From: Escherichia phage EC.P1
Length of the DNA: 64,000 nt
Direction: 5' to 3' (one strand)
Sequence record: PQ657772.1
Of the stretch, positions 19,337-20,679 are shown one piece after another (positions within the stretch are counted from its first letter, which is position 1; the number at the start of each line of letters is the position of its first letter). The notes beneath the pieces are model-generated. The model was not told where the DNA came from, did no database searches, and saw nothing but the letters and a program-made list of their open reading frames with translations. The position numbers and the translations under genes were made by a program.

Positions 19337-19867
19337 TTAATCGAGTATAGTAACTTCAATCAAACGAATTTCGATGAATTCGTTTTCAGTTTCCCATGAT
19401 GAACCTAATTTCTTATTAAGTTCAGTTTTAACATCACTTTTAAATTTTCCCATAGTATTAGGAATAATTTGTTTGGTTAGTTTGTCATAACCACAATAAA
19501 ACATAGGTTTCTCCCTTCGAGATATTAGCTCAACAAAATCCTTTGGATATGCAGGTATATTATGCATCACTTCATGAATGCACTCAGTACTTGAATCTTG
19601 TACTTTGTACATTACATTAAGTTTACCTTTGAAAGTTCTAATCATATCAACAATAATACCTTTACCAGATTTAAGTAAAGTTCCATTCTTTGTATGAGAA
19701 CAATAGAATACCTCATCACCAATATTAGGATAGTACAAATTAAATTCTAATTCTTCCTTTGATGACTGACGTTGAAATTTCATTACACGATCAGTATAGG
19801 TGGGGTAGTTCTTCATGTTCAAAAGAATATCTCTCTTAGTAAGTGTGATATAACTGGCATAGTCCAT
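19337..19867 (-). CDS. hypothetical protein (176 aa)
   Basis: Six-frame ORF; 49-nt overlap with methyltransferase gene, start uncertain. Confidence 0.45.
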   Translation of the reverse strand: MDYASYITLTKRDILLNMKNYPTYTDRVMKFQRQSSKEELEFNLYYPNIGDEVFYCSHTKNGTLLKSGKGIIVDMIRTFKGKLNVMYKVQDSSTECIHEVMHNIPAYPKDFVELISRREKPMFYCGYDKLTKQIIPNTMGKFKSDVKTELNKKLGSSWETENEFIEIRLIEVTILD

Positions 19868-20679
19868 CCATTCCCAAGCATTTTGTATGCTTGTGTCTTA
19901 CTAGACACTTTAAAGAAATCTACAGGAATACCCTGTAATTTACAACATTCTACTACACTTAAGTGTCTATAGTCAATATTTCTTTTACCATTCTCCAATA
20001 GATATTGACGATTAATCGTTGGGTCACGAAACACCAACTGTCGTCTTGATTTATTAAAGTACTGGTTACAATCACCACCCTTAAAATAGTTAGCATCTAT
20101 ACAGTACGAAGCGGTTCTGTCAGTGTACCAACCATCTTCAATGATATCTTGAAGTTTAGGGGCATTTGATAATGCAGGTGGTATAAAAAGCTTATCAGTA
20201 CTGCACCAGTAGTATCTCTGCCTGAAGTGAGGCGTATAATGCTGGGAATTTATCAGTACTGGTGTGATTCCTAAAATACTATTAATGTATTCTTTGAAAT
20301 CTTCCTTCATTTTAACATTCTCGAACAGAAATTGCAAGTTTGGATTTACACTTTTGATGTGCTCAAAAATATCAACCATAACCAAAAATAACTGTCCACG
20401 TATATCATTCAAGCCACCTTGCTTACCAGCAACAGACCAGGCTTGACATGGGAATCCTCCCATGAGTAAATCTATCTTATCCCACTCAATATCCCATTCT
20501 TTCCACTTAGTCACATCACCTAACTGGATAATATCAGGAAAATTCTCGGAAGATTCAGCAATTGCGTACTTGTCAATTTCAGATGAGTAATATTTTTCAA
20601 CTGGAATACCTGCATCTGCCAATGCCATATATCCAACGCTCATTCCATTAAAAAGTGACAGTACTCTGATAGGTTTCAT
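19819..20679 (-). CDS. DNA (cytosine-5)-methyltransferase, compact Dcm-like
   Basis: C5-MTase motifs: LFNGMSVG (AdoMet), GGFPCQAWSVAG (catalytic PC motif), FLFENV (ENV motif), LGNGWTMPV near C-terminus. Confidence 0.8.
   Translation of the reverse strand: MKPIRVLSLFNGMSVGYMALADAGIPVEKYYSSEIDKYAIAESSENFPDIIQLGDVTKWKEWDIEWDKIDLLMGGFPCQAWSVAGKQGGLNDIRGQLFLVMVDIFEHIKSVNPNLQFLFENVKMKEDFKEYINSILGITPVLINSQHYTPHFRQRYYWCSTDKLFIPPALSNAPKLQDIIEDGWYTDRTASYCIDANYFKGGDCNQYFNKSRRQLVFRDPTINRQYLLENGKRNIDYRHLSVVECCKLQGIPVDFFKVSSKTQAYKMLGNGWTMPVISHLLREIFF

Follow-up and report, generated by a model that had tools for sequence, protein, structure and literature searches.

The genome papers of the jumbo phages phAPEC6, Sharanji, CBB, UE-S1 and RaK2 mention a DNA methyltransferase gene and read it as serving protective methylation, and the gene is already known in that it is annotated in dozens of deposited jumbo-phage genomes. 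The RaK2 genome codes for two methyltransferases (gp194 and gp447), and its virion DNA was reported from bisulfite sequencing to contain methylated CpG; the only enzymes that cut this DNA were those unaffected by Dam, Dcm, CpG and EcoKI methylation, both statements being given as data not shown (PMC3622015). Here we analyze the counterpart of gp194 in a 64,000-nucleotide stretch of Escherichia phage EC.P1 (PQ657772.1, the whole of which is hereafter referred to as the window), where it occupies positions 19819..20679 on the minus strand. The reading that we favor, and that we consider somewhat better than an even bet, is that the gene specifies an active orphan C5 cytosine DNA methyltransferase, probably expressed early, which would protect phage DNA at a short and probably CpG-containing site.

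The gene itself is a real, intact and unusually small C5 DNA methyltransferase. Its open reading frame (ORF) of 861 bp runs from ATG to TGA, encodes 286 amino acids (aa), and lies exactly at these coordinates in both the ORF listing and the sequence. The protein matches Pfam PF00145 with E=4.7e-37 and 128.6 bits against a cut-off of 22, with the match beginning at residue 4, and it also reaches 117.2 bits against a cut-off of 100.65 for TIGR00675 (dcm) and E=1.2e-58 for phrog_116 (“DNA methyltransferase”). These family scores lie above the cut-offs and far beyond chance. The complete set of C5 methyltransferase motifs is present in the canonical, non-permuted order, namely motif I as LSLFNGMSVG (F10, G12), motif IV as GGFPCQAWSVAG (P77-C78-Q79), motif VI as LFENV (E120-N121-V122), motif VIII as RQRYYW (R153, R155), motif IX as RHLSVVECCKLQG (R238, E244, Q249) and motif X as MLGNGW (G269-N270-G271). 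None of these residues varies across an alignment of 20 homologues with 49–96% identity to the window protein, and the catalytic cysteine, Cys78 within GGFPCQAWS, is intact.

An earlier note on this DNA, made from its letters alone, had described a compact 286-aa C5 methyltransferase with the catalytic PC motif, the ENV motif, a motif binding S-adenosylmethionine (AdoMet) and only a short target-recognition region, and all of this is borne out. The spacing between motifs VIII and IX is only ~82 residues, and the window protein is without the variable insert of ~20–90 residues that phi92-like and many other members of the family have after ...KSRRQLVF. What is left of the recognition region is highly constrained, as the core DR.KSYCIDANYxKGG...KSRRQ is invariant or nearly so among the 20 aligned homologues.

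The 3 kb surrounding the gene is 99.2–99.7% identical to BF17, vB_Ec-M-J, Turkey3, fEgEco12, WPEC3, WPEC5 and Ecwhy_1 and ~89% identical to 121Q and PBECO4, and we take the window to belong to an Asteriusvirus jumbo coliphage of the 121Q/RaK2 type. At the protein level, the enzyme is 100% identical to the annotated methyltransferases of Ecwhy_1, BF17, vB_Ec-M-J, fEgEco12 (Gp455) and WPEC3/5, which are deposited as “DNA-cytosine-methyltransferase” or “DNA methyltransferase”, and 95.5–95.8% identical to the counterparts in 121Q (gp91), PBECO4 and phAPEC6. Orthologues at 63–76% identity are found in CBB, GAP32 (GAP32_390), Xanthomonas phage XbC2, Erwinia phages and RaK2/K64-1, with RaK2_00194 (gp194) aligning at 63% identity over its full length. 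Judged from these comparisons, the methyltransferase is conserved across the whole RaK2-like clade. The window gene differs in no material respect from these annotated methyltransferases, being the same gene in the same place within a block of small hypothetical genes, apart from an intein that is present in A4, ph0011 and UE-S1 and absent from the window allele.

Inteins typically occupy conserved sites of functional proteins. In the orthologous gene of A4, ph0011 and UE-S1, an in-frame intein of ~345 aa yields a continuous ORF of ~630 codons, which in phage A4 lies at 292647-294545 of ON286972.1 (plus strand of the extracted stretch, 1501-3399) and in phage ph0011 (OP557969.1) at 1322-3202 of the extracted stretch, on its minus strand. 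The insertion falls exactly between GGFP and CQAWS (...GGFP/CFPAGT...VVHN/CQAWSVAG, with slashes marking the intein boundaries), so that the intein begins with Cys and ends with HN, and its +1 residue is the catalytic cysteine. Hint_2 and LAGLIDADG_3 domains are recognized by Pfam inside the A4 and ph0011 inteins, and the same break is seen in TH47 and JNE01 as a tblastn match that begins at residue 78. The UE-S1 paper makes no mention of an intein. We count the presence of a homing intein at the catalytic cysteine of relatives, together with the spread of orthologues through the clade, as a sign of selection for function.

In a search of proteins of solved structure, the sequence aligns best with the DNMT3B and DNMT3A catalytic domains (E ~1e-23), with the DNMT3B match (E=1.2e-23) covering residues 2–282. 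An AlphaFold model built from the 20-sequence alignment has a mean predicted local distance difference test (pLDDT) score of 87.7 and a predicted template modeling (pTM) score of 0.88, and when it is compared with the PDB by Foldseek, the top 50 matches are all DNMT3A/B/C catalytic domains with TM scores of 0.75–0.80; the DNMT3A, 3B and 3C matches are full length, with E ~1e-23 and 25–29% identity. The model thus depicts a minimal enzyme with little beyond a catalytic core, predicted to be built like the eukaryotic DNMT3 catalytic domain. The crystallized DNMT3 domains (PDB 5YX2, 6KDA, 6W89 and 8TCI are among the best matches) are 284–291 aa long and therefore of the same size as the phage protein, motif I of the phage protein is DNMT3-like (LSLF-D/N-G), and a short target-recognition region is common to both. 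In contrast to DNMT3, which has N-terminal PWWP and ADD domains, the phage protein has neither, its catalytic domain being the whole protein, and it is because these domains are absent that we describe it as DNMT3-like and place it outside the DNMT3 family. Motif IV is PCQ in the phage protein and PCN in DNMT3, and the loop of the target-recognition domain (TRD) also differs in sequence; since the TRD loop is not conserved, the CpG specificity of DNMT3 is not transferable to the phage enzyme. The resemblance to DNMT3 is not new as such, because virome surveys have already reported that phage genes labeled “DNMT3A” by KEGG are common.

The bacterial enzymes of known specificity compare less closely. 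M.HhaI (GCGC) and M.HaeIII (GGCC) share the Pfam family, motif order and catalytic mechanism of the phage protein, but they match it only over the N-terminal half or in two pieces and with weaker scores (1e-15 to 1e-17; for M.HhaI, E=7e-17 over the N-terminal half only), exceed it in length by ~40 residues, have a larger TRD and come with a cognate endonuclease that the phage gene does not have. GCGC is ruled out as a self-protective target because the genome has none. M.SssI and M.MpeI may share the m5CpG context (5-methylcytosine at CpG) with the phage enzyme if the RaK2 report applies to it, but neither came up in the PDB sequence search at E<0.01. A structure of M.MpeI has been solved, and both M.SssI and M.MpeI are ~100 residues longer than the phage enzyme. 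Solved relatives gave no inference of the target, the TRD loop being conserved with none of DNMT3, HhaI or HaeIII.

The same searches bear on whether the substrate might be RNA, as it would be for a DNMT2-like tRNA cytosine-5 methyltransferase acting on phage-encoded tRNAs instead of DNA. DNMT2 enzymes have the same motifs and do appear among the PDB matches (E ~1e-9 to 1e-10), one relative of the window protein carries the label “DNMT2”, and tRNA genes are interspersed in the corresponding gene block of relatives. The DNMT2 matches nevertheless extend over the N-terminal half only and trail those to DNMT3 by 13 orders of magnitude, every one of the top 50 fold matches is a DNMT3 DNA enzyme, and RaK2 DNA is reported to be methylated, all of which makes action on tRNA very improbable.

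Equally relevant to function is the company that the gene keeps. The ORFs flanking it on both sides contain no Pfam domain and no nuclease domain, both belonging to PHROGs of unknown function, and its neighbors in 121Q, RaK2 and GAP32 are all small hypothetical genes. Type II restriction enzymes are also missing from the 25 Pfam families seen most often in the 127 ORFs that flank 80 homologues in bacterial genomes; the recurrent neighbors there are other orphan methylases (N6_N4_Mtase, Dam), helicases, DNA polymerase A, integrase, NinG and similar prophage genes. Inference of the target through a restriction-enzyme partner was tried at these 80 loci and rejected, as only prophage-type neighbors surround them. 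The family is a phage- or prophage-borne orphan methylase. That some relatives are named “modification methylase HaeIII/HpaII” in their records could suggest the methylase half of a phage-borne type II restriction-modification system, but those names are automatic, and with the neighborhoods just described we regard such a system as extremely improbable. Because no restriction-enzyme partner is found, an orphan self-protecting methylase is the natural reading. The orphan status of the gene stands firmly. The earlier note had called it a likely anti-restriction self-methylase, and the protective role is what the genome papers also assume and what we infer from this context.

Such an enzyme would act by the chemistry that is standard for C5 methyltransferases, as can be outlined from its motifs. 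It would be produced during infection from the small-gene block, probably early, and would flip out the target cytosine so that Cys78 of the PCQ motif could attack C6 while Glu120 of the ENV motif protonates N3, with the methyl group coming from AdoMet bound by motifs I–III and X. Replicating phage DNA would in this manner be methylated at a short sequence, and host type II restriction enzymes with sites overlapping the methylated sequence would be unable to cut. Protective methylation of this kind would complement the very strong restriction-site avoidance of these genomes, which is described below.

As for the sequence that is methylated, the RaK2 bisulfite report is the most direct pointer to CpG, and several sequence statistics agree with it. 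In strand-symmetrized dinucleotide ratios, the window has CpG at 0.76 and TpG/CpA at 1.25, with similar values in 121Q and RaK2. When always-synonymous third codon positions of the window are compared with those of 121Q, C/T differences per conserved C peak where a G follows (0.83 vs. 0.45–0.66), and G/A differences peak where a C precedes (NCG/NCA among NNG/NNA pairs, 0.96 vs. 0.54–0.70). In the HMMER alignment, the family-invariant Lys200 aligns with the lysine of the DNMT3B TRD-loop segment TTKSNS, which we take to be K777, the equivalent of DNMT3A R836, and to read the CpG guanine or its flank. Taken as support for CpG methylation, these sequence statistics are weak, and neither they nor the position of Lys200 decide the matter.

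A number of points weigh against protection at CpG and have to be set beside this evidence. The data behind the RaK2 statements were not shown, and the enzyme concerned is an orthologue at 63% identity. Low CpG together with high TpG is also seen in unmethylated AT-rich genomes, and the effect of CpG at synonymous sites is only ~1.3–1.8-fold, which is weak. Cleavage by ClaI and NruI is blocked by CpG methylation and that by SexAI by Dcm methylation (manufacturer tables). Nine enzymes, among them the methylation-sensitive ClaI, NruI and SexAI, gave the predicted cleavage of DNA from fEgEco12, whose methyltransferase is identical to that of the window. Since ClaI and NruI cut this DNA, complete methylation of every CpG, of the type produced by M.SssI or M.MpeI, is excluded in fEgEco12, and virion DNA may be hardly methylated. 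Many palindromes containing CpG are moreover avoided in the window (GCGC, CGATCG, CTCGAG and GTCGAC each have 0 copies, and CCGG stands at 0.36–0.44, depending on the model), which counts against full CpG protection because avoidance would then be unnecessary. Lastly, methylated cytosine after a purine (R-mC, which for CpG means methylated ACG or GCG) is a substrate of McrBC. The E. coli K-12 strain MG1655, on which relatives of the phage were isolated, has EcoKI, McrA, Mrr and McrBC.

A literature search for methylome or restriction data on Asteriusvirus, phi92-like phages and DNMT3-like phage enzymes yielded two informative hints, m5CpG in RaK2 and the digestion of fEgEco12 DNA, and these do not fit a simple CpG methylase. 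They can be reconciled with each other if methylation is only partial, or if the site is a longer, CpG-containing sequence clear of ATCGAT and TCGCGA. The target is therefore probably a short CpG-containing site and not every CpG.

The avoidance of palindromes in these genomes extends well beyond CpG. GCGC has 0 copies in the window vs. 28–58 expected and is likewise at 0 in the 121Q, RaK2 and GAP32 stretches, and the window has no copy of 28 of the 64 palindromic hexamers, essentially all with at least four G/C, with GTGCAC (16 copies) as an exception among the G/C-rich ones. This pattern would be extreme restriction-site avoidance, or else avoidance of the site of a phage-encoded nuclease. 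GATC (0.42–0.5) and CCGG (0.24–0.44) are under-represented, and GCWGC (GCAGC/GCTGC) is ~2-fold enriched in the window (73 copies vs. 32–49 expected). In the phi92-like coliphage PD06 (MH816848.1, 121766-146740), which carries a longer family member of 329 aa with 50% identity, the avoidance profile is opposite to that of the window, with GCGC (1.08), GATC (1.28) and ACGT (1.54) not avoided. We also pooled 61 IMG/VR contigs of other phages that carry the family, and there GCGC is the least avoided G+C palindrome (0.94); CCGG is not avoided in the 13 contigs whose enzymes are equally compact, whereas GCGC and CCGG are both avoided in the window. As a read-out of protection, these avoidance profiles are mixed and not decisive.

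The digestion and avoidance data are also where one would look for an enzyme that is mainly not self-protective, that is, one that acts on host DNA (for example in the service of methylation-dependent nucleases, with the phage itself lacking the target), is regulatory, or is only weakly active. The cleavage of fEgEco12 DNA by all nine enzymes fits this account, as does the extent to which the clade leans on site avoidance, and the value of 0.94 for GCGC in other carriers vs. 0 in the clade is what a GCGC-type enzyme with its own-genome sites purged would give. On the other hand, RaK2 virion DNA was reported to contain m5CpG although GCGC is absent from the 40 kb of it examined, no methyl-dependent nuclease or other partner was identified beside the gene, and avoidance of HhaI/HaeII/NarI-type restriction would account equally well for the purging of GCGC. 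Orphan phage methylases are, in addition, usually self-protective. A role other than self-protection thus seems rather unlikely to us, though deserving of some weight.

The earlier note had named an over-represented palindrome containing AGTACT as one candidate for the target. The over-representation is confirmed, with 140 copies of AGTACT in 64 kb vs. ~18–22 expected, which is 8-fold over a dinucleotide model. The sites are spread evenly at about one per 450 bp and occur in every reading frame (60/23/40) and in intergenic positions or at ORF boundaries (17 more); those inside the methyltransferase gene include 20058, 20197, 20255 and 20660. CAGTACTG, the extended consensus of AGTACT, is present in 32 copies. 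AGTACT is also 9–11-fold enriched in the 121Q, RaK2 and GAP32 stretches, all of which carry an orthologue of the enzyme and are too diverged for individual AGTACT sites to be common by descent. When the window is compared with 121Q, 29 of 46 AGTACT sites are kept, against 46% of control hexamers, and both sequences show gains as well as losses.

An enzyme specific for AGTACT (or its GTAC core) could protect the palindrome from ScaI-type restriction or produce a self mark, and some of the evidence can be read in that way. Other phages avoid AGTACT, which suggests that restriction acts against the site and that it would have to be protected here, and none of the enzymes found to cut fEgEco12 DNA overlaps it. 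Against this, the RaK2 bisulfite report puts m5C at CpG, which AGTACT does not contain. Other carriers of the family also avoid the palindrome: PD06 has 0 copies vs. 8 expected, the pooled 61 contigs have it at 0.39 of expectation, and the 13 contigs with equally compact enzymes have it at 0.38 (0.38–0.41 for other carriers, these 13 included), and this despite the recognition core being near-invariant in the 20 homologues. Because these other carriers avoid AGTACT, its excess is a trait of the RaK2-like clade and does not go with the enzyme family. Neither AGTATT nor AATACT, into which deamination would turn the palindrome, is depleted, and an origin of the enrichment by a process of the very-short-patch-repair type was rejected for that reason. 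AGTA-mC-T would also be an R-mC substrate for McrBC at every ~450 bp in phages whose relatives were isolated on McrBC-carrying MG1655, protection alone leaves the 8–11-fold enrichment unexplained, and phage N6-adenine methyltransferases are equally good candidates as protectors of AGTACT. Specificity of this enzyme for AGTACT is accordingly unlikely, and the enrichment is probably not due to the methylase.

A precedent for such a pairing would be the HIP1 palindrome (GCGATCGC) of cyanobacteria, which reportedly coexists with the CGATCG-specific C5 methylase M.Ssp6803I and whose methylation has been proposed as a mark of self. The likeness lies in a strongly over-represented palindrome, here AGTACT/CAGTACTG, scattered through the coding sequence of a genome with a C5 methylase gene; the difference is that for AGTACT and the phage methylase the indirect evidence points away from a pairing. 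That AGTACT/CAGTACTG is the substrate of the methylase, as a phage counterpart of the HIP1-methylase pair on a 350-kb genome, is by this analogy a doubtful proposition that we hold improbable. If it were true, methylated AGTACT would be a “self” mark or a structural signal, going beyond simple anti-restriction. A weaker version of the proposition would make the enzyme a viral relation of the DNMT3 catalytic domain and the smallest CpG-context methyltransferase in nature.

Returning to the locus of the putative self-protective methylase, a spacer of 52 nucleotides (nt) separates the upstream ORF (stop at 20732) from the methyltransferase start. Within it, a Shine-Dalgarno-like AAGGA at 20686..20690 on the minus strand lies 6 nt 5' of the ATG and is conserved in 121Q, ph0011, A4 and GAP32. 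An extended −10-like element, TGCTATAAT, at 20717..20725 on the same strand is a candidate promoter for host RNA polymerase on the strength of a consensus match only; in the upstream alignment it is identical in 121Q and ph0011 and absent in A4, GAP32 and RaK2. The consensus promoter scan did not list TGCTATAAT, the −35 region being poor, and the sigma-70-like sites found by that scan show no excess over shuffled sequence. On the downstream side, the methyltransferase gene shares its last 49 nt with an ORF of no assigned function (19337..19867, minus strand, 176 aa from the first ATG, phrog_28599), and the two are probably transcribed together. In the gene table of fEgEco12, Gp456 (176 aa) overlaps Gp455 likewise.

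On a larger scale, the gene sits within a block, over 20 kb long, of small ORFs that share its strand and have no assigned function. By crude ORF calling over positions 1-64000, 103 of 105 ORFs of at least 60 codons are on the minus strand, with a coding density of 90%, and the window is one very long unidirectional block made up mostly of small genes with no assigned function. The earlier note had placed the gene in an early region, which fits this small-gene block but gains nothing from the promoter scan or from TGCTATAAT, which is kept only in close relatives. Because the scan gave no excess over shuffled sequence, the label “early” rests on gene-block context only.

The identification of this methyltransferase matters little in itself, being an ordinary and correct observation on a gene that was already annotated. 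The more surprising feature of the window is the combination of the 8–11-fold enrichment of AGTACT, the absence of GCGC and the lack of most G+C-rich palindromic hexamers. As for the enzyme family, a DNMT3-like protein of 286 aa with a very short recognition region may prove to be a small methylation tool or may offer a clue to the origin of DNMT3.

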